Positions 1 through 58,726 of a DNA stretch of 64,000 bases are shown piece after piece. Under the pieces are notes generated by a model that saw nothing but the letters and a program-made list of their open reading frames with translations, made no database searches and was not told the DNA's origin. How positions within the stretch are numbered: position 1 is the stretch's first letter; each line of letters starts with the position of its first letter. Source of the DNA: Candidatus Nomurabacteria bacterium (GTDB lineage Bacteria > Patescibacteriota > Minisyncoccia > Phycocordibacterales > UBA9973); NCBI GenBank assembly GCA_026396065.1, contig JAPLXO010000008.1, forward strand, positions 1,056 through 65,055. The letters are read 5' to 3'. The translations under genes were made by a program, and so were the position numbers.

Positions 1-1300
1 ACAGACAGTCAAAACTTGGCTAACGAGAGACCAGCGTCAAGCGTCCCAACCTTCGGGTGGACGAAGATAGAGTCCTTCTTAGGTATAGAAGAGCGAAATA
101 CCTTGTCGGGTAAGTTCCGACGCGCACGAATGGTGTAATGACTGGAAAACTGTCTCGGAGATCAGCTCGGTGAAAATACAATGCCGGTGAAGATGCCGGC
201 TAAGTGCAGTTAGACGAAAAGACCCTAGAAGCTTTACTATAGCTTGATATTGAGCATGTTTTTTTATTGCGTAGAATATACGGGAGGATTTGAAGCAGCG
301 ATTTCGGTTTCTGTGGATCCGACAGTGCAATACCGTACTCTAAAAGGGCATGTTCTAACCAAAACGGCAAAAACGTTTTGAGACAGTATCTGGTGGGTAG
401 TTTTACTGGGGCTGTACCCTCCTAAAAAGTAAAGGAGGGGTTTAAAGGTCAGCTAGGCGCGAATGGAAACCGTGCCGATAGTGTAATGGCACAAGCTGGC
501 TTGACTGTAAGAGGTACATCTCAAGCAGGTGGGAAACCAGAACATAGTGATCCGACCATTCGCAGTCGGCTCACCTTATCCTGGCGGTGGAGAAGCTGCC
601 AAAGGTTTGGCTGTTCGCCAATTAAAAAGGTACGCGAGCTGGGTTCAGACCGTACAGAACCTCACCCGACCTCTCCGAATTTCGGAGAGGAGAAGTGAAT
701 TTTGTGCAATCTGAATCCTCAGAGGTAAATTTTTGTTTATGAAAAAAAATATTTTCGGGATTTTTTAAAATCCCAAAGTAAAGATAGAATCAATCACATC
801 ACGGCGGTCACGCGAAATTAATTCGAGTGATTAAAGTTGACTTATATCGGTGAAGTCCACCATTTGTCTTAATTGGCAAGCGACGGATAATACCGAGGGA
901 ACCCAAACGTAAAGTTTTGGACCCGTAGAGACTAATCGTCAACAGTTCTAACACATATCAGCTTCCGTTAGAATGAAGTTATAGTCCAATGCAACAAGTA
1001 ATTGTTGGTATCATGCGTGAGACAGGTTGGTCTCCTATCTACTGCACTCGTTGATTCTTGAGAAGATTTGTTCCTAGTACGAGAGGACCGGAATGAACTA
1101 ACCTCTGGTGTACGAGCTGTCCTGCCAAGGGCACTGCTCGGTAGCTATGTTGGGAATGGATAACCTCTGAAAGCATCTAAGAGGGAAGCCAGCTTCAAGA
1201 TTAGGAATCGTTAAGAACCCTGAGAGATGATCAGGTTGATAGGCTTTAAGTGTAAGCGCAGCAATGCGTTCAGCTGAGAAGTACTAATGTTTCGATTCCT
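1..1300 (+). rRNA. rrl: 23S rRNA, 3' portion (domains IV-VI equivalent), carrying internal insertion; 3' end near 1300
   Basis: Blocks collinear with E. coli 23S ~1900-2904: gtaagttccgac..cacgaatgg, gacgaaaagaccc..ctttactatagcttga, tctggtgggtagttt, gtaatggca..gcttgactg, catagtgatccg, ggtacgcgagctgggtt, gtgagacag, cctagtacgagaggaccgga, gaaagcatctaag, gtactaatg. Six-frame ORFs inside it are spurious. Confidence 0.85.
650..1012 (+). other. ~360-nt insertion inside 23S rRNA between the GGGTTYAGA and CGTGAGACAG blocks (E. coli ~2585-2593); putative ORF-less intron or intervening sequence
   Basis: Conserved 23S sequence stops after gctgggttcaga (649) and resumes at atgcgtgagacaggttggtctcctatc (~1013). 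Intervening sequence is AT-rich, unrelated to 23S, and holds local hairpins (cctctccgaatttcggagagg). Confidence 0.5.
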
Positions 1301-1613
1301 GTTAAGAAATTTGGAAATCACACTTCGATTTATTTCGAAGAAATTAAAAAAACAAAAACAAAAAATTTGAAATTCGAAAAGTGGAAAATAACAATTGTTG
1401 TTTTTTACAATTCATCCAAGGGGGATGAAGAATAATCAAGAAAGAATTAAAAAACTTTTGCAAGAACAACCTAACCCAAATCTACCCACTTGCTCTAGTA
1501 AATATTCTATTCTTTTGTATTATTTCTAACCCCTTACATTCGGAACGGTAAAAGAGTTAATCTACTTTCTTTACCTTCCACTTTCCGGATTTCAAATTGT
1601 TTCGAACCTTTTG

Positions 1614-23793: not shown

Positions 23794-24681
23794 ATGAACG
23801 AAGATACAAATCAAATTGAAGAAAAAATCAGGACTCTAGAAGAATCAATGGTGAAGCCAGATTTTTGGAATGATAAAGTAAATGCTCAAACAGTATTGAA
23901 AGAACTTGCTGAACTTAAAGATAAAAAAGAAGGATTGGGAAAATATGATAAAGGCTCGGCAATAATAAATATTTTTTCTGGTGCTGGAGGGGATGATGCA
24001 GAAGATTTTTCTAGTATTCTTTTTGGAATGTATATGAAATATGCAAAGAGAACTGGCTATGGTATCAGCTTTATGGATGAACATAAAAATGATCATGGAG
24101 GATATAGAAATGTATCTTTTGAAATTTCTGGAAAGGGTGCGTATGGAAAATTAAAAAATGAATCAGGTGTGCATCGTCTCGTGCGTATTTCACCATTCAA
24201 TGCAAAAAAAATGCGTCATACTTCTTTTTCTCTTGTAGAAGTTTTACCAAAGTTTTCTAAAATGGATGAAAAAGATTTTATAATACCAGAAGCTGATTTG
24301 AAAATAGAATTTTCTCGTGCAGGTGGGCCTGGTGGGCAGAATGTAAACAAGCGCGAGACAGCAGTGCGAATAGTCCACACACCGACAGGAATATCGGTGC
24401 ATGCCAATGGAGAGCGAAGCCAAGAACAAAATCGCGAACAAGCTATGAGTATTCTTCGCGCAAAGATTTTTAAGAAAGCCCAAGATGAGAAAAAAACTTT
24501 TGAAGAAAGTATGAAGATTTCTAAAGGTACAGAAATAGAATGGGGAAGTCAGATTCGCTCATATGTCCTCCATCCATACAAAATGGTAAAAGACCACCGC
24601 ACAGATGCTGAAACCTCAAATGTAGACGCTGTGCTTAATGGCGATCTTGACCTTTTTATTAAAGCTGAGAAAAGCTTATAG
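23794..24681 (+). CDS. prfB: peptide chain release factor 2 (short form, no frameshift site)
   Basis: SPF tripeptide (RISPFNAKK), GGQ motif ([24 protein letters not shown]), [12 protein letters not shown]-terminal block. Confidence 0.8.
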
Positions 24682-24933
24682 CTCTTGACTTTTTTATACA
24701 ATATGCTAGTATAGAAGCCAGTTTCAGCTCTTTGACAGAAGCTTTGTTTTATTGTAATAAGAGCAACATTTAGTGAATTTAATATCACTAAGTTCTTTAA
24801 ATGTTGCTCTTTTAAATATATTTAATTAGAAACAACCGTTGCTGTAACCAATCAGCCATTCCGTTACGAAAGGACCAGATGAAAAGACTCTGGAGATTTT
24901 TTTAAATGTATCTAAACAAAAAACAAATTAAAA

Positions 24934-27105
24934 ATGAAGAAAATAGTTCTTTTGCTATTAGTAGCACTCTTATTCATTGGAGCGACAATGAAAGTAAACG
25001 CACAACAAATTATTCACCCGAGTTTCACGATAAGCGCAGATACTACTTGTACAGGAGTATATTTATTCCCTACAAGTACAACAACAGTGGATTTTCCAAG
25101 TGACACTTCATATTTGAAATATGAATGGTCAACAAATGGAAATGCTACAACGCAGTACTGGCAAGGGCGTTATTTTTACCAGGGAGTTGCTTATAATTGG
25201 GGAAGTAATACTTACTTTCTTACATTAACGGTAACAGATACTGTTAATAACATTGGAAACAGCTTTTCCCAGCCTATACATGTATATGACAGGCCGGGTT
25301 GGACATTAATAAGTCCGCAAAGTCCTACTATTGATTGTATTGATTCGGTGATTGTAACTGCTACAAATAACGACCCAAATACAACTTTTATTTAGGAAGA
25401 CAATACTGGAGCAATCATTGGTTCAGGACAACAACAGAGTTTTAATTTAGGTGGAAATTATTCAGTTACTGCGGTAAGTACGATTTCCGGCTGTGTTTCA
25501 AATGGCACAAATTTCTTCAATGTCCAAAATAATGGGCAAACCACGATTACTATATTCGCTGGTTACCCAAACATAAACTTTGGATACATAAATGTATTTG
25601 GTGATAGCGTAGAAGTCTGCGGCTCAAATGCAACACTCGGGTTCAATACCTCGGGACCATTCAATAATAACTTCACTTGGGACAATGGATCTAATCAGTA
25701 CAACCGAACTATCACAAGTTCAGGACTGTACTCTCTGACTTACATCAGTCCTAGTGGTTGCACAATCACGTCTACAATATATGTGACGATGCGTCCACTA
25801 CCTGTACTTCCTATAACTTCATCAGGGTCAACTACTTTTTGTAACGGAGGAAGTACAACACTTCAAACTACTCCAAACTTACAAAATTATAATTGGCAAG
25901 GAGCTTGGGGTCAGGGTAATACAGCTGTAGTTTCTTGGAATGGAAATGTAACTGTCATAGCAACCGATTCTTTCGGTTGTACTGGACAATCACAACCAGT
26001 TACAATTACTGTTTTAAATACATCAGTCACACCAATCATAAGTCAGGTTGGATGCAACACTTTTTCAAATGTAGCACCTGACTCGACTACGACTTTGAGT
26101 TGGACCTTGTATGGCACATCAGCTGTATTAGGAACTACTCAATTGTTTCAACCTCCGCATTATGGGATGTATGTTTGTACAGCTACAAATATAAATGGTT
26201 GTGCAAATGCATCGGTACCTTTTGCCTTTACCAACTTAATTATTCCACCTGTATTGAATACAACCGGAATGACTGAAGGTTGCCAAGGACAAAACATTAA
26301 TCTTGTAGTGCTAAATGCAGCAAGTTATTCTTCATTGATTTGGAGTAATGGTGCAAATACATCAAATATTGTTGTAAACAATTCTGGATTATTTTCAGTA
26401 ACTGGTTACAATAATGGATGCCAACAAACCTCAGTCGTGGATACTGTAATTTTCCATCCAAACCCTACAGCAACGATTAGTGGAAACTCACAGTTTTGTG
26501 AGGGCTCCACTGATACTCTTTCTGTAAGTGCTGGAGCTAGTACTTATTGCTGGAATACCAATCAAAATACTGCAAGTATTTCTGTGACAAATTCCGGTAC
26601 TTATTCTGTGACAACGACTAATACTTTTGGTTGTACAGGTAGTGCAAGTATTACGGTAACAGCAAATCCATTACCTATACCGGTAATTGCTGTAAATGGT
26701 TGTGTTGTTTACATTACAAATTCACAACCAGGTGATACACAGGAATGGTATATAAACGGAATATTAGTATCTGGTTCTGGAGATTATATCTCTACTGGTG
26801 ATATCGGAATGTATCAGGTTTTCGTTACTAACAGTAGCGGATGCAGTAATGGTTCAAACAGTATATTTATAAACTGTACCGCTGGTATTGAAGAAGCAAT
26901 TTTAAATAATGCTTCAATTTATCAGACGGACCATGAAATAACTATTAAATTTACCGAGAACAAAGATCATACGATAAATATTTTTGATGTACTAGGTAAA
27001 AAAGTGTTTGAAAAAACAGCACACGGAACTATGGTTATTCAAACCGAAAATTTTAACTCAGGGATGTACTTTATCCAGGGATTAAAAAGAATTTTAATAA
27101 AGTAA
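24934..27105 (+). pseudogene. large secreted surface protein with Cys-containing ~90-aa repeats (SprB-like) and T9SS-type C-terminal sorting-domain-like tail; 724 codons interrupted by one in-frame TAG at 25393-25395
   Basis: ORFs 24934-25395 and 25783-27105 are in the same frame, with no other stop in 25396-25782. Signal peptide MKKIVLLLLVALLFIGATMKVNAQQ. Repeated ..GCTGS.. / ..NGCQQTS.. / ..SGCSN.. modules. C-terminal ~70 aa resemble a Por/T9SS CTD beta-sandwich. Confidence 0.5.
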
Positions 27106-27252
27106 TTGTGGAATAAAGTTTTCGCTCTTAATAAAAAACTCTTTGTGACTTAATTGTTTGCAGGGAGTTTTTTCTTGCTATTTTACAAAAAATGTGATAA
27201 TATAATTCTATAATTTAAATATAGTTCTTAATCATTTAAAACAAAAGCAGTT

Positions 27253-27636
27253 ATGAAAAAAACAAAATTTTTACTGGTGCTTGGCACCTTAGTTATTTTG
27301 TCTGTGTTATTTGCTAATATAGCAAAAGCACAAACAGGTTATTATATTGAAAGTACAAAGTTTCAAAAGTATGCAAGAGAACATCCAAATTCAATGCAGT
27401 ATCGTTACGATAAGTTAAATCGTATGGTGCTTTGGATGACTCCTTGTAACAGGGATAGCATTAATACAACATCTTACACTTATGATGCTGCAGGTAATCG
27501 TTTGAGTAAGACAGTCCTTTTATTTTACAAGGACAAAGAAAACAACGAAAAATATATCTGCCAAACAACAATGGACCCAAAACAGTTTTCCACCTTTCTG
27601 GAAACTATTTTTAACCAATTGGATGGAAAACAGTAA
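27253..27636 (+). CDS. small secreted protein containing a single YD (RHS-type) repeat
   Basis: Signal peptide ending AKAQ; YTYDAAGNRLSK matches the YD-repeat consensus. Confidence 0.5.
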   Translation: MKKTKFLLVLGTLVILSVLFANIAKAQTGYYIESTKFQKYAREHPNSMQYRYDKLNRMVLWMTPCNRDSINTTSYTYDAAGNRLSKTVLLFYKDKENNEKYICQTTMDPKQFSTFLETIFNQLDGKQ

Positions 27637-27678
27637 ACTTTTAAAAATTTTGAAAATCCATAGTGAGCCTAGCTCATT

Positions 27679-28401
27679 ATGGATTTTTGTTTGTTTATCT
27701 TTTCTGATATAATAAGATTCGTGATCTACTTTAATAATGTTTCAAAAATTTACAATAAAGATTCAGTAGCATTAGATGATATTAATCTTACTATTTCTGC
27801 AGGGGAATTGGTCTCAATTGTAGGCCATTCTGGTGCCGGAAAGACTACTTTGATTAAAATGATACTTTCCGATGAAAAGCCTACAGGAGGTAGTGTTTTT
27901 TTTGAGTCTTTAGATATTCAAAATTTAAAAAATAAAGATCTCACGAAGCTCCGCCGACGTATCGGGGCTGTTTTTCAAGATTTTAAACTTTTAACAAATA
28001 AGACTGCTTACGAAAATATAGCTTTTGCAATGGAAGCGGCTGGAAAGACAGATGAAGAAATGCTCAGCGATATTCCACATGTTTTAGAATTGGTTAATTT
28101 ATCACACAAGACAAATCATTTTCCTCATCAAATGTCTGGAGGTGAAAAGCAACGTCTTGCTATAGCTCGCGCTATCATCAACCAACCAGAATTAATCATT
28201 GCTGATGAGCCTACTGGTAATTTGGACCCAGTAAATACTTTTGAAGTAATTCAGATTTTAAAAAAGATTAATGATTTGGGTACGACTGTTATTTTGACTA
28301 CACACAATAGAGGCGTAATAGATTCGATAGGTAAGCGTGTAATCACTATGGACAAAGGAAAGATTACTAGGGATGATAAAGACGGTAAATATACAATATA
28401 G
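27679..28401 (+). CDS. ftsE: cell division ATP-binding protein FtsE (true start probably GTG at 27722)
   Basis: [10 protein letters not shown]-terminus, Walker [35 protein letters not shown]; followed by ftsX. Confidence 0.85.
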
Positions 28402-52673: not shown

Positions 52674-52798
52674 TTTACATTTGTAAGTAAAGTCAACTAT
52701 TTGTGAAAATAGTATTTGAGGTTATTTAATATTGAAAAATCCTTAAAAATAAGGTCAAATTTTGAAATTTCCTTAAAATGTGCTATAATTGTGAGGTT

Positions 52799-55180
52799 AT
52801 GGATAAAAAATCCCTTACAGAACAAGATATTTGTTCAAAATACGTTCTACCAGCAATTCTCGATTCAGGATGGGATTTACATACTCAAATACGTGAACAA
52901 TGGACATTCACTTCCGGCAGAATTATGGTTCATGGAAAAACTATTTCTCGCGGTGATAAAAAGCGTGCTGATTTTATTTTATATTACAAAAACAATTTCC
53001 CAATAGCTGTCGTTGAAGCAAAAGATAATACACATTCTGCTGGAGCAGGTCTCGAACAAGCAAAACAATATGCAGAAATTTTAAATATTCCATTTGCGTA
53101 TAGTACCAATGGTGATGAATTTGTAGAATATGATTTTTTAATTGGTACAGAAAAAACTTTTCCATTAAATGAATTTCCAGATCGAGAAGAATTAATGCGT
53201 CGTTTCTCAGAATCAAAAGATTACAATCAAGAACAAAAAGAAGTAATTCTTCAAGATTATTTTATAGATCCTTCAGGTAAGGGGCCTCGTTATTATCAAG
53301 AAAATGCTATAAACAAAGTTGTCGAAGCTGTAGCCAAAGGAAAAGATAGACTTCTTTTAGTAATGGCAACCGGAACAGGAAAGACATATACAGCATTTCA
53401 GATAATTTACAGACTTTGGAAATCAAAGAAAAAGAAAAGAATTTTATTTCTCGTAGATCGTACAGCTTTGGCTCAACAGACAATGCAAGGTGACTTTCGT
53501 CATTTTGGTGGAGCGATGACTCGTATTAAAAATGGTACAGTAGATAAAGCATATGAGATTTATGTTGCTTTATATCAAGGTCTCACTGGTGGTAGTAATT
53601 CTGAAAATGATATAGAAGCTGAAGAAGAAAAGAAAAAACTCTTTCAAGAATTTTCTCCTAATTTTTTTGATCTTATTGTTGTAGACGAGTGTCATCGTGG
53701 TAGTAGTAATGAAAATAGTGCATGGAGAGAAATTTTGAATCACTATACTAGTGCAACACAGATTGGTATGACTGCTACACCAAAAGAAACCACCGATATG
53801 AGTACTGAGGAATACTTTGGTAAGTCTGTATATACATATTCATTAAAACAAGGTATTGATGATGGATTCCTTGCACCATATAAGGTTATTCGTTATAGAT
53901 TCAATAACGACGAATGGCGTCCGATAGAAGGTTTTCGTGACGTAAATGGAGAAATTGTTCCTGATGAGATTTATACCGAAGGTATGTTTGACCGTACTAT
54001 CATTATAGATGAACGTAATAGAGCAGTAGCAAAATGTATTGCAGATTTTATGAGAGATACTGATGTGTATCAGAAAACAATTGTTTTCTGTGTTGATATC
54101 GCACATGCAGAGCGTATGCGTACTTGTTTGACGAATGAATTAAAAGAACAAACAAAAGAAAATTCTAGATTTATAGTAAAGATAACAGGGGATGATACTT
54201 TTGGAAAAATGGAAATTGAAAATTTTATTAATCCCGAATCTCGATATCCAGTTATCGCGACGACTTCAAAGCTTCTTTCTACTGGAGTTGATACAAAGAC
54301 AGTTAAACTCATTGTCCTTGATTCACCTATGAATTCAATGACAGAATTCAAGCAAATCATTGGTCGTGGTACACGTGTCGAAGAGCAATACGGAAAATAT
54401 TATTTTACTATTATGGATTTTAGAAATGTTACTCGTCTTTTTGCTGACAAAGATTTCGATGGTGATCCTGTGAAAGTCTATGATGTTGATGGAAAAGATC
54501 CTGTTGATATTGAGAGCTTGATGAACGAAGAAACAAGGTCTGAAGAAATGATAAAAGAATTAGATCCGTTGGCTGAAGTTTTGATTGATGGTACTCAAAC
54601 AGAAGAAAAACCAAAAAAGATTCGTATCAAAGACGGAGTTGATTTTTATCCTATTCATCAAGAAGTAAAATATATCGATCCGAAGACAGGTAAACTCATT
54701 ACTGAATCATTAAAAGATTTTTCAAAGAAAACAATTATTTCTGAGTATGCATCTATTGATGAATTTCTGACTCGTTGGAAAGAAATAGAAAGAAAAGACA
54801 TCATCGTAAATGAATTACTCGATCGCGGTGTTGCTTTTGAAGAGCTTCGTAAAGAATCCGGTAAAGACCTCGATGTGTTTGATTTGATTTTACATGTTGC
54901 CTATGGCAAGAAGCCGATGACTCGTAGTGAAAGAGTTAAAAAAGTTCACGCAAATGATTATTTTGGAAAATATGAAGGCAAAGCAAGGGAAATAATAGAC
55001 TTATTACTTACAAAATATACAGACCAAGGTATTACTGCTATTGATGGTATTGAAGATTTGATGGTTTCTCCATTTACCGACTATGGTACTCCTATAGAAA
55101 TAGTTGAGGATATTTTTGGAGGTAGAGAATCCTATATGGAAGTTATCAAAAACATAGAAAATAGTTTATACTCAGATTAA
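52799..55180 (+). CDS. hsdR: type I restriction enzyme R subunit
   Basis: N-terminal HsdR nuclease region, helicase motifs VMATGTGKTYTA and VVDECHRG (DEAH), motif VI QIIGRGTR. Confidence 0.85.
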   Translation: MDKKSLTEQDICSKYVLPAILDSGWDLHTQIREQWTFTSGRIMVHGKTISRGDKKRADFILYYKNNFPIAVVEAKDNTHSAGAGLEQAKQYAEILNIPFAYSTNGDEFVEYDFLIGTEKTFPLNEFPDREELMRRFSESKDYNQEQKEVILQDYFIDPSGKGPRYYQENAINKVVEAVAKGKDRLLLVMATGTGKTYTAFQIIYRLWKSKKKKRILFLVDRTALAQQTMQGDFRHFGGAMTRIKNGTVDKAYEIYVALYQGLTGGSNSENDIEAEEEKKKLFQEFSPNFFDLIVVDECHRGSSNENSAWREILNHYTSATQIGMTATPKETTDMSTEEYFGKSVYTYSLKQGIDDGFLAPYKVIRYRFNNDEWRPIEGFRDVNGEIVPDEIYTEGMFDRTIIIDERNRAVAKCIADFMRDTDVYQKTIVFCVDIAHAERMRTCLTNELKEQTKENSRFIVKITGDDTFGKMEIENFINPESRYPVIATTSKLLSTGVDTKTVKLIVLDSPMNSMTEFKQIIGRGTRVEEQYGKYYFTIMDFRNVTRLFADKDFDGDPVKVYDVDGKDPVDIESLMNEETRSEEMIKELDPLAEVLIDGTQTEEKPKKIRIKDGVDFYPIHQEVKYIDPKTGKLITESLKDFSKKTIISEYASIDEFLTRWKEIERKDIIVNELLDRGVAFEELRKESGKDLDVFDLILHVAYGKKPMTRSERVKKVHANDYFGKYEGKAREIIDLLLTKYTDQGITAIDGIEDLMVSPFTDYGTPIEIVEDIFGGRESYMEVIKNIENSLYSD

Positions 55181-55183
55181 TAT

Positions 55184-56605
55184 ATGTCATCCCAAATTCA
55201 ATCAATCATAAAAAATATTCAAGATGAAATGCGCAAAGACGCAGGGCTCGATGGTGATGCACAACGTATCTCACAGCTTGTATGGATGCTATTCTTGAAA
55301 ATTTTTGATGACCGTGAAAAGAACTTGGAACTCATTGATCCAAAATATGTTTCTCCAATTCCTGAAAAATTCCGTTATCGTAATTGGGCTGTTGATGATG
55401 AAGGCATCACTGGCCAAGATCTTGCAGACTTCATCGATAAAGAGCTTTTCCCTGCACTCAAAAATCTTTCCATTTCCGATACTGATACTCGTGGATTCTT
55501 GATAAAGAATATCTTTACTGATACGTATAACTATATGAAGAATGGTACGCTCATTCGTAAAGTTTTTAATAAAATAAATGAAATAAATTTCAATAAAAAA
55601 GACGACCGTCATGCATTCGGAGATTTGTATGAAAAGATTTTGAAAGATCTTCAAAATGCTGGAAATGCAGGGGAGTTCTATACACCACGCCCACTGACGA
55701 AATTCGTGGTAGATATGGTCGATCCAAAGTTTGGTGATACAATCCTCGATCCTGCATGTGGCACAGGAGGATTCCTCGTCAATGCACTCGAGCATATGCG
55801 TGCTGGTGTAAAAACTGCAAATGATGAAAAGAAACTACATTCATTCGTAAACGGTGTAGAGCTCAAACCACTTCCACACATGCTCGCTATTACAAATATG
55901 ATTCTCCATGGAGTTGAAGACCCCTCTACTATTCTTCGTGGCGATATGCTTTCTCGTCCATATACTGATTATGGTCCGAAAGATCGCGTCGATGTTATTC
56001 TTGCAAATCCACCTTTCGGGGGTACTGTTACTGATGGCACAGAATTAAATTTCCCATCACAATTCCGCACAAAAAGTACTGCAGAATTATTTCTTGTTTT
56101 ATTTGTTCACTTATTAAAAGATGGCGGTAGGGCTGGTATAGTTTTACCCGATGGGTCTTTATTTGGTGATGGAGTTATTGCAAAGGTTAGAGAATATCTT
56201 ATGACTGAATGTAACCTTCACACTATTGTCCGTCTTCCTCCGGGAGTTTTCAATCCATATGCAGGAGTAAATACAAACTTACTCTTTTTCACTAAAGGTG
56301 AGCCTACAAAAGAAGTTTGGTATTACCAGATGAAGCTTCCAGCTGGACTTCGTGCTTATACAAAGACCAAGCCTATTACAGATGCAGAATTTGATACAGT
56401 CAAAGAATGGTGGAAAAATCGTGCCGATTTTTCCACCGACAACGCATGGTGTGTTTCCATCGAAGACATAAAAGCTAAAAATTGGAATTTGGACTTCAAG
56501 AATCCAAAGGGTGGGGAAGTAGAGGAAGAATTCGGGTCGAAAGAATTGGTTGAGAGAATTTTTGGAAAAGAAGAGGAAATTAAAAAGATTTTGAAGAATA
56601 TATAA
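55184..56605 (+). CDS. hsdM: type I restriction-modification N6-adenine DNA methyltransferase subunit
   Basis: HsdM N-terminal domain, motif I DPACGTGGFL, motif IV ILANPPFGG. Confidence 0.85.
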   Translation: MSSQIQSIIKNIQDEMRKDAGLDGDAQRISQLVWMLFLKIFDDREKNLELIDPKYVSPIPEKFRYRNWAVDDEGITGQDLADFIDKELFPALKNLSISDTDTRGFLIKNIFTDTYNYMKNGTLIRKVFNKINEINFNKKDDRHAFGDLYEKILKDLQNAGNAGEFYTPRPLTKFVVDMVDPKFGDTILDPACGTGGFLVNALEHMRAGVKTANDEKKLHSFVNGVELKPLPHMLAITNMILHGVEDPSTILRGDMLSRPYTDYGPKDRVDVILANPPFGGTVTDGTELNFPSQFRTKSTAELFLVLFVHLLKDGGRAGIVLPDGSLFGDGVIAKVREYLMTECNLHTIVRLPPGVFNPYAGVNTNLLFFTKGEPTKEVWYYQMKLPAGLRAYTKTKPITDAEFDTVKEWWKNRADFSTDNAWCVSIEDIKAKNWNLDFKNPKGGEVEEEFGSKELVERIFGKEEEIKKILKNI

Positions 56606-57208: not shown

Positions 57209-58726
57209 ATGAAAGAAAATGAAGCAAAAATACACTTTTCAGATTTTTTTAAGGTAAGTCATGATTTAGTTGAGAATTATGGTGCTCTTGATATATCACT
57301 TCTATCAGATAATCCTGCTTTCGTGGATCCATTTTTAATTTTCTATAGTAAAAAAAGTGAATACGAAGTGTTGCATAAGCAGATTATTGAATATATTTTT
57401 TTCTTAAAAAGAAATAGTGATAATGGTAATTATTTAGAAACTAATTATAAATTTCCAGAAGTTAGCCAAACATGGTTAGGATATTCAAGACATGGAAATA
57501 AAGGGAGAGGTCTTGGTCCGAAGTTTGCTAAAGAGTTAGATAAAAATTTGACGGAAATATTTTTTGAATTACAAGATAGTAAAATTACTAAAAGTCCACA
57601 TTTAGAAAAACTTTGTCTAGTTGCTAAGGGTGTTGGGGTTGATAATATTAGTGATTTTACACTTAATCTTGTTAAAGGTTATTTAATTAAATATACAAAA
57701 AATTTTTGTAAGGAAAATGTCAATCCTAAATTTTTAAACGATTTTGGTATTTCTAGAATTGAATTTGATTTTGAAAAAGGAATTTGGATTGATGGAGTGG
57801 CAAGTTTGCCATTCATTTATAATGAAAAAGGATTGAAAGAATACGTATTATTAACTCCTAAGGATATTTTAGTAAAAGAAGAAGATTGGATTTCAAAAAG
57901 CGATTTTCTTAAACATGACAGTGTTATTTTAAATAGAATTGATAATCAGGATTTAAGAGATAAAATTAATCAATATTTTAATGCATTGATTCCAGTTAAA
58001 ATAAACAAAAAAGGTAAAAAAGTTCCGGATAATTCTCAAAAAAATAGAAAAGAAGCGTTAATAGAAACTGCTAAAAAATATACAATATTATTAGAGTATT
58101 ATATACGATATAAAGAAAATGAAGGATCTCCTGTTGTTAAAAGAAACTTAGAGGATGTTTCTTTGATTAAAGATATTTTTTACTCAGAAGCAAGAAAAAT
58201 TGTGTCTGAATTAAAAAATGACACAGAATTTTATAAAAAACCACTTTCTTCACTCGAAGAAAGTATCAAGAAAATAAAGATATTTAAACATTATCTAGAG
58301 GACAGGAATAACTGTAGAATCTTTTGGGATGGTGAAAAGTTAAAAAAAATAAAAGAAGATGATATTGGAATATTATTAGATCTTATTTTTAACGAATCTT
58401 TGTTTTCTGTCGATAATCAAGTAAATAATGGCAGAGGTCCTTCTGATGTAAAAGTTTCAATGGGTAGAAAAGATTGTACTATTATTGAAATAAAACTTGC
58501 GTCAAATCCGCAAATGCCTAAAAATCTAAAAAATCAATTAGATATTTATAAAAAAGCTAACGATACTTACAATGGTGTCTATCTCATTGTATATTTTACA
58601 AATGATGAAAAAGTTAAGATGGAAATTTTATTAAAAAAGTTAAATATGTTTATATATATTGATAAATATATATTTCTTATTGATTGTCGAAAAAAGATTT
58701 CTGCATCTAAAGTAAATGAACTATGA
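57209..58726 (+). CDS. hypothetical protein embedded in type I RM operon (gene B), C-terminal PD-(D/E)xK-like motif
   Basis: 505-aa ORF; C-terminal region has hydrophobic-D (IGILLDLIF) then TIIEIKLAS (ExK). Its stop overlaps the hsdS start (ATGA). Confidence 0.5.
   Translation: MKENEAKIHFSDFFKVSHDLVENYGALDISLLSDNPAFVDPFLIFYSKKSEYEVLHKQIIEYIFFLKRNSDNGNYLETNYKFPEVSQTWLGYSRHGNKGRGLGPKFAKELDKNLTEIFFELQDSKITKSPHLEKLCLVAKGVGVDNISDFTLNLVKGYLIKYTKNFCKENVNPKFLNDFGISRIEFDFEKGIWIDGVASLPFIYNEKGLKEYVLLTPKDILVKEEDWISKSDFLKHDSVILNRIDNQDLRDKINQYFNALIPVKINKKGKKVPDNSQKNRKEALIETAKKYTILLEYYIRYKENEGSPVVKRNLEDVSLIKDIFYSEARKIVSELKNDTEFYKKPLSSLEESIKKIKIFKHYLEDRNNCRIFWDGEKLKKIKEDDIGILLDLIFNESLFSVDNQVNNGRGPSDVKVSMGRKDCTIIEIKLASNPQMPKNLKNQLDIYKKANDTYNGVYLIVYFTNDEKVKMEILLKKLNMFIYIDKYIFLIDCRKKISASKVNEL

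Follow-up and report, generated by a model that had tools for sequence, protein, structure and literature searches.

The gene treated here is a 724-codon frame, gene X, in a window of 64,000 nucleotides from a Candidatus Nomurabacteria bacterium (contig JAPLXO010000008.1, assembly GCA_026396065.1), and the described systems that resemble it most are the type A cargo proteins of the type IX secretion system (T9SS), the grappling-hook protein GhpA of Aureispira and the adhesin SprB. The T9SS is placed in Bacteroidota by the literature (including PMC5837995). The route followed there comprises Sec transport across the inner membrane, cyclisation of the N-terminal Gln, passage through SprA led by the C-terminal domain (CTD) and, finally, surface display (PMC5837995, PMC11285876). 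Gene X shares with type A cargo (the CTDs of RemA, RemZ, NucA and RgpB) a Sec signal peptide, Gln at +1, a seven-strand C-terminal sandwich of about 70 amino acids (aa), a Gly in the beta3-beta4 loop and a Lys-rich C-terminal strand. Differences are the host, which belongs to the Candidate Phyla Radiation (CPR), and the presence of YQTD in the place of YPNP.

GhpA is a T9SS substrate with a stalk formed by immunoglobulin (Ig)-like repeats with disulfides. As in gene X, the arrangement (PDB 9flp, 9fly, 9flw and others) is a string of Cys-containing Ig-like domains followed by a T9SS sorting domain; however, GhpA has 52 repeats in 5,898 aa whereas gene X has seven modules in 724 aa, and the N-terminal domain of the latter (N-domain) is unrelated. 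No evidence of heptamer formation or of a hook domain was identified in the gene X protein. SprB is also a large repeat-built surface protein of Bacteroidota with a T9SS C-terminal signal, and its repeat family (PF13573) is found in some of the weaker homologues of gene X. The SprB signal, however, is of type B (CHU_C), a model against which the gene X CTD reaches 17 bits with a cut-off of 27, and PF13573 had no match in the whole gene X protein at E<=1 nor in any of the seven modules at E<=10.

Gene X is read here as one gene and not two, part of an insert of Bacteroidota ancestry, and as encoding a Sec-exported Ig-repeat protein with a T9SS CTD that would have been broken recently by a single G-to-A change; a probability of about 0.8 is given to this reading as a whole. 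A preliminary description, made from the sequence, had already proposed a single split gene with a T9SS-like tail, horizontally acquired by a CPR-like genome, and these proposals stand. What it said of the repeats, of a toxin cargo and of the meaning of the stop codon holds only in part or not at all, as described below.

One gene with an internal stop

Translation of 24934-27105 (+) gives one frame of 724 codons, with the TAG at 25393-25395 as its sole internal stop. The two listed open reading frames (ORFs), 24934-25395 (153 aa) and 25783-27105 (440 aa), are both in this frame. After the TAG there are no stops in 569 codons, while the other five frames contain 23-48 each; chance does not explain such an open frame. 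The NCBI gene calls divide the gene into MCX6757740.1 (hypothetical, 153 aa) and MCX6757741.1 ("T9SS type A sorting domain-containing protein", 438 aa). The kind of protein is already known and half of the gene is correctly labelled by NCBI; the two entries would be better joined into one and flagged as a pseudogene.

Two intact orthologues of 724 aa were identified. The first, P0001 (ENA ERZ1426853), is 83% identical at 100% coverage, has Trp at the stop position (FIW-KD, where the window has FI*-ED) and lies in the gene order dapF-prfB-X-126-aa gene-ftsE-ftsX, as in the window. The second, P0245 (Logan ERR12084921, locus L087), is available with its DNA, presents the same gene order and carries TGG where the window has TAG, the difference being one G-to-A transition. 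By the module hidden Markov model (HMM) the stop falls in the middle of Ig module 1, at a Trp that is kept in the other six modules as well as in P0001, P0245 and the distant relative P0266, which is described with the insert.

Selection was estimated from codon alignments of the window with L087 (Nei-Gojobori). The ratio of nonsynonymous to synonymous substitution (dN/dS) is 0.175 for gene X as a whole (dN 0.10, dS 0.57), with 0.145 before the TAG, 0.183 after it and 0.159 in the CTD. For the neighbouring genes it is 0.05 in prfB (C-terminal part, aa identity 95%), 0.04 in ftsE (92%) and 0.22 in ftsX (70%); the FtsX neighbour in ERZ1426853 is also 70% identical. No second lesion was found in the 569 codons after the TAG. 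The alignments indicate purifying selection along the whole length of the gene, sorting domain included, during essentially all the divergence of the two lineages, and the purifying-type ratios on both sides of the stop, together with the lack of a second lesion, point to an inactivation that would be very recent.

The G-to-A change in the Trp codon of module 1 would end translation at codon 154, and the product in the window genome would be a secreted stub of 129 aa with its function lost. The next in-frame start lies 130 codons downstream of the TAG, and a protein begun there would have no signal peptide. The TAG would then be an ordinary nonsense mutation in a Trp codon, or possibly a consensus artefact. 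According to the latter explanation the TAG arose in sequencing or assembly, or entered the consensus of the metagenome-assembled genome (MAG) from a minority allele, and the gene of the population is intact. The single lesion, the ratio after the stop being like that before it, as in an intact gene, and the intact copies in two other assemblies all agree with an artefact; however, a very recent real mutation would give the same pattern, the NCBI gene calls on the deposited contig show the same split, and short-read assemblies seldom contain consensus errors of a single base. An artefact is considered unlikely, though it deserves to be kept in mind.

The chance is slight that the TAG is read through or reassigned, by a suppressor tRNA or by altered release factors, with the full-length protein still being made. 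The perfectly preserved downstream frame would suit it, as would the fact that release factor 2 (RF2), which does not read UAG, is the only release factor in the window, where no RF1 gene was found. On the other hand, at least ten other long ORFs of the window terminate in TAG, with dapF, prfB, ftsE and ftsX among them, and L087 has TAA instead at the corresponding ends of ftsE and ftsX. Six tRNAs were identified in the window, none of them with a CUA anticodon, few ORFs merge when TAG is dropped from the stop set, the TAG of gene X is the only in-gene one found, and the ancestral codon is a plain TGG. Reassignment of TAG as a sense codon was rejected on the use of TAG at the end of conserved genes, its interchange with TAA at orthologous stops and the lack of a tRNA-CUA in the window; the in-frame TAG lends no support to stop-codon recoding in this lineage.

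A reversible phase-variation switch is even harder to credit. Surface adhesins are often phase-variable, but the change here is a base substitution in TGG rather than a change of length, no homopolymer or short tandem repeat was found at the site (ACAACTTTTATTTAGGAAGAC), and no invertible-segment repeats were found flanking it. Recoding and phase variation were both rejected because TAG is a normal stop in this genome, the ancestral codon is TGG and the site has no repeat. Among the options of the preliminary description, which were a pseudogenising mutation, a phase switch and suppression, only the first is retained.

Domains of the encoded protein

Signal peptides were judged by a home-made heuristic and not by a trained predictor. 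The signal peptide of gene X is MKKIVLLLLVALLFIGATMKVNA/QQ (VNA/QQ), with Gln right after the predicted cleavage site; the second gene of the insert, which encodes a protein of 127 aa, has the junction AKA/QT. In both proteins Gln would stand just after the signal-peptidase I site, as in the "Q-rule" described as Bacteroidetes-specific by Bochtler et al. (PMC5837995). With this heuristic a junction of the type [ASG]Q was identified in 68 of 77 Bacteroidota-like homologues (88%), in 11 of the 218 signal-peptide-like ORFs (5%) of 80 related Paceibacteria loci, and in two of the 24 signal-peptide-like ORFs of the window, exactly the two insert genes. The Bacteroidota style that had been attributed to both signal peptides is borne out by these frequencies.

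The N-domain has no family match and its AlphaFold model is poor (predicted local distance difference test, pLDDT, <55). Only four weak matches were obtained among 1.84 billion representatives, one of them being the Nomurabacteria protein P0264/P0266, and no counterpart was found among the Bacteroidota homologues.

The seven modules measure 72-87 aa; a Cys stands close to the beginning of each and GxYxVT...GC close to its end. The Cys repeats of the preliminary description are thus present, but they are shorter than the approximately 90 aa given there, and in the alignment of the seven only G-C is invariant and not G-C-x-G. AlphaFold models them as all-beta beads (pLDDT 80-93), and of the ten best Foldseek matches eight are fragments of the GhpA stalk repeats (E 1e-25 to 6e-11, 18-23% identity). 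The family PF19081 (Ig_7) is matched over nearly the full profile by module 3 (16.8 bits, E 0.0086) and module 6 (18.4 bits, E 0.0028), with a cut-off of 27.3; the Bacteroidota homologues carry this family and the module consensus of the window matches theirs. The modules are predicted to be Ig_7/CHU_C-associated Ig-like domains, with GhpA as the closest solved structure. The SprB-like identity first proposed for them was rejected, as they have no PF13573 match and resemble the Ig_7/GhpA type.

The CTD was identified by HMM search in the protein encoded after the TAG, which passes both curated cut-offs: 28.3 bits with a cut-off of 27 for Por_Secre_tail (PF18962) and 26.3 with a cut-off of 23 for TIGR04183. 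The last 74 residues alone reach 34.3 bits for Por_Secre_tail. The AlphaFold model of aa 650-723 (pLDDT 83.4) is a seven-strand Ig-like beta-sandwich, and its Foldseek matches in the PDB were RgpB 7pq4, RemZ 8gl8_D, RemA 8gl6_D, NucA 8glk_D and mirolase 8qb1, with template modelling (TM) scores of 0.56-0.68 and modest E values of 1e-2 to 5e-2; the model also matches DUF3244. By phmmer the best PDB matches were the SprA-bound CTDs 8glj_D and 8glk_D. Two motifs have been shown to matter for T9SS function, the Gly of the beta3-beta4 loop and the Lys of the C-terminal strand (PMC11285876). The first corresponds to G39 (FDVLGKK), which is flanked by strands 30-35 and 41-47 and shows no variation in 45 aligned sequences, and the second to the Lys-bearing strand KRILIK; both features are also present in L087. 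Judged by HMM, fold and motifs, the predicted domain is a real T9SS type A CTD, in agreement with the tail first described.

No T9SS components were found among the ten largest ORFs of the window, which are housekeeping or restriction-modification (R-M) genes, nor, by reading of Pfam family names, in the neighbourhood gene lists of related contigs. Absence of an outer membrane has been proposed for CPR bacteria, and the literature searched contained no report of a T9SS in this group. CTD-dependent export should not be assumed for gene X.

The intact protein would be a bead-on-a-string surface protein formed by the signal peptide, an orphan N-domain of about 100 aa, the seven Cys-containing Ig modules and the type A CTD. 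In Nomurabacteria Sec would suffice for its export. At the surface or outside the cell the seven Ig modules would act as a stalk that displays the N-domain, much as an adhesin does, or as a spacer. As an outer membrane and a T9SS would both be lacking, the CTD would not act as a T9SS signal and may have been kept as a folded end domain with another role. It seems doubtful that the sorting domain still works as a signal or anchor, either recognised by a surface-attachment machinery of CPR or engaging the T9SS or the surface of a Bacteroidota host cell. If the hosts of Nomurabacteria are Bacteroidota, the protein would be a candidate attachment factor.

A two-gene insert between prfB and ftsE

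The host genome is of the CPR, as had been suspected: by exact look-ups, NCBI assigns both pieces of gene X and all neighbouring proteins to a "Candidatus Nomurabacteria bacterium" MAG, on a contig of 67.6 kb, and the rest of the window contains CPR-style housekeeping genes (the end of the 23S/5S rRNA, dapF, a short RF2, ftsEX, pyrG, SecD and RNase J) and a type I R-M system. Gene X and its 127-aa neighbour form an insert of about 3 kb (24682-27720) between prfB and ftsE. A prfB scan of species-representative genomes gave 80 Paceibacteria/Nomurabacteria loci, and in about 70 of them prfB is directly followed by ftsE, ftsX and pyrG. Relatives of gene X or of the 127-aa protein were identified in none of the 80, and the HMMs found no further CTD or Ig module in 988 kb of related DNA. 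A scan of genome contigs with P0001 gave no match. The search for direct or inverted repeats bounding the insert gave only weak, chance-level matches.

Outside Nomurabacteria, the named homologues of gene X are nearly all from Bacteroidota, the one named exception being a protein of a Thermoanaerobaculia MAG. The closest of the homologues outside Nomurabacteria is at most 36% identical, over approximately half the length. The GC content at third codon positions (GC3) of gene X is 0.25-0.28, close to the 0.19-0.26 of the flanking genes, so the transfer is not fresh. The insert appears to be of Bacteroidota ancestry and to have been acquired by a small clade of Candidatus Nomurabacteria, which agrees with the horizontal acquisition first proposed. 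Bacteroidota DNA misjoined to a CPR contig, by chimeric assembly or contamination, would also give nearly exclusively Bacteroidota homologues outside CPR and two signal peptides of Bacteroidota type, but its probability is practically nil because the same junctions with the same CPR genes are shared by three independent assemblies (the NCBI MAG, ENA ERZ1426853 and Logan ERR12084921), the GC3 is as in the flanking genes, the nearest Bacteroidota protein is as distant as stated, and another Nomurabacteria MAG has a colinear relative in a neighbourhood of ribosomal and recA genes.

This relative, P0266 (MCX6752843.1, 721 aa), was found through the N-domain search of representatives and belongs to the MAG GCA_026395955.1 (JAPLXR010000004.1, L088 8001-10166); P0264 is identical to it but for four N-terminal residues. 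It is colinear with gene X over the full length and shares the VNA/Q signal peptide, the N-domain, the seven modules and the CTD. It differs in being intact, in its identity of 33% and in its locus, between efp and rpsR-ssb-rpsF. Its CTD has the canonical YPNPF, where gene X has YQTD, and a stronger Por_Secre_tail match (50.1 bits, scored on P0264). Within the homologue set the best match of P0266 is P0001, with 341 bits compared with 119 for the best Bacteroidota protein, and its CTD and N-domain each match P0001 best. Identity is even along the domains, 28-38%, with 37% in the CTD. The simplest reading of these comparisons would be one old acquisition followed by divergence within Nomurabacteria, with the sorting domain retained throughout. 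Gene X and P0266 would form a small and rare family resident in Nomurabacteria; two scans of JGI metagenomes, one with the N-terminal alignment and one with that of the full-length family, gave no match.

The second gene of the insert (NCBI call MCX6757742.1) encodes the secreted 127-aa protein with the lone YD repeat that had been described. The repeat of the window copy passes the cut-offs of PF05593 (23.9, cut-off 22) and TIGR01643 (22.2, cut-off 15.8). The L087 orthologue, with 54% identity, retains the YD motif but gives no YD HMM match. No other homologues were found among 5.8 billion proteins, the search returning only the protein itself. No toxin or enzymatic domain was found in either insert gene, and a protein of 127 aa with a single YD repeat cannot form a rearrangement hotspot (RHS) shell, so the toxin cargo suggested at first was dropped.

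Some points weigh against the reading of gene X adopted here. The TAG is known from assembled sequence, in which an error of assembly or consensus, or a minority allele, would look the same. The signal-peptide calls, including the [ASG]Q frequencies, depend on the heuristic. In the CTD the first-strand motif of YPNP type is replaced by YQTD in the window copy, in P0001 and in P0245, and the CTDs of the orthologues score 25.3-25.4 bits, just under the Pfam cut-off of 27. The absence of the T9SS covers the ten largest ORFs of the window and the neighbourhood gene lists, and not the whole genome. Finally, the adhesin role is deduced from the architecture alone.

If gene X has the history proposed, its interest lies in the long-term, selected retention of a T9SS-cargo architecture in a phylum with no known T9SS, and it raises the question of the role of a T9SS sorting domain in a cell with nothing to sort it. 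It would also be a clean example of the transfer of a surface protein across phyla into an ultra-small, host-dependent bacterium, at conserved housekeeping loci.

The junction between prfB and ftsE is variable in Paceibacteria, and inserts unrelated to the one described were identified in loci L002, L012, L044, L048, L057, L077, L079 and L081. They include a sigma-factor-like gene, a type IV pilin-like gene, secreted proteins, a PaaX-like gene, a transposase-like gene and Inhibitor_I42. Just upstream of prfB, L081 also has a protein of 623 aa with DUF5018 and Fib_succ_major, a family named after Fibrobacter succinogenes.

Coordinates and smaller features

Table 1. Features of the insert and its flanks, with positions in the window.
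Feature	Position	Strand	Basis
prfB (RF2, 295 aa), left flank of the insert	23794..24681	+	PCRF and RF-1 domains; best NCBIfam model prfB
Promoter-like site upstream of gene X, TTGACT-16-TAGTAT, TG ahead of the -10 box	24685..24712	+	consensus scan; putative function
22-bp hairpin in the leader, then U-rich run	24759..24811	+	inverted repeat
Gene X, Ig-repeat secreted-protein gene with T9SS-type CTD, pseudogene here	24934..27105	+	724 codons, one internal stop
Sec signal peptide, aa 1-24, KVNA/QQ Q-rule junction	24934..25005	+	read from the sequence and heuristic comparison
N-domain, aa 25-122	25006..25299	+	shared with Nomurabacteria relatives only
Seven tandem Ig-like modules, aa 121-651	25294..26886	+	alignment, module HMM (7 copies), model, Foldseek
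Premature TAG, codon 154, in Ig module 1 at the conserved Trp	25393..25395	+	TGG in L087
High-identity tract in gene X, about 650 bp	26080..26740	+	92-98% nucleotide identity to L087, 68-88% elsewhere
T9SS type A CTD, aa 650-723, and TAA stop	26881..27105	+	HMM, fold, motifs
127-aa secreted protein, AKA/QT junction, one YD motif (YTYDAAGNRL); second insert gene	27253..27636	+	HMM, sequence
Terminator-like hairpin with 18 pairs and a T run after them, right end of the insert	27651..27689	+	repeat and consensus scans
ftsE, right flank of the insert	27721..28401	+	likely start GTG 27721 by match to the L087 protein start

The high-identity tract of gene X (Table 1) has a dS of 0.13 for aa 438-581, compared with 0.5-1.2 elsewhere in the gene (window and L087). 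Because of this low value and of the nucleotide identity of the tract, it probably reflects a recent homologous exchange between Nomurabacteria populations.

The leader of gene X (24685-24830) is 93-97% identical to L087, whereas the neighbouring coding DNA is 57-89% identical, and the promoter-like site sits in a stretch nearly identical between the two. The segment 24715-24830 (116 nucleotides) has a minimum free energy of -28.4 kcal/mol (z -3.6) and 93% identity to L087. The leader is confined to the insert-bearing genomes and absent from the other 86 loci. Rfam gave five matches to it, all of them far below the gathering scores and none credible. It may act as a regulatory leader or a small RNA, or simply represent a further recombination tract. 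The spacer between gene X and the 127-aa gene (27106-27200) is approximately 90% identical to L087 and holds an extended -10-like box, TGTGATAATAT, because of which the 127-aa gene may have its own promoter.

In the right flank, the ATG at 27679, which is the start of the longest ftsE ORF, falls within the terminator-like hairpin, and the GTG start is likelier; the protein begins with VIYFNNVSK in the window and with MIYFNNVSK in L087. In the left flank the RF2 is short, with much of its N-terminal domain missing and 347.6 bits for NCBIfam prfB (cut-off 370). The gene is a single ORF that begins 4 nucleotides past dapF, with room for only 48 residues ahead of the profile match.

The type I R-M genes (52778-56605) encode HsdR (800 aa) and HsdM (473 aa); the ORF of 505 aa that comes after them (57209-58726) has no Pfam match at E<=1e-5. 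At the beginning of the window (1-1308) lies the 3' part of the 23S rRNA, in which 1,021 model positions (1905-2925) occupy 1,308 nucleotides; the approximately 290 extra bases may represent an rRNA insertion of the kind often found in CPR.

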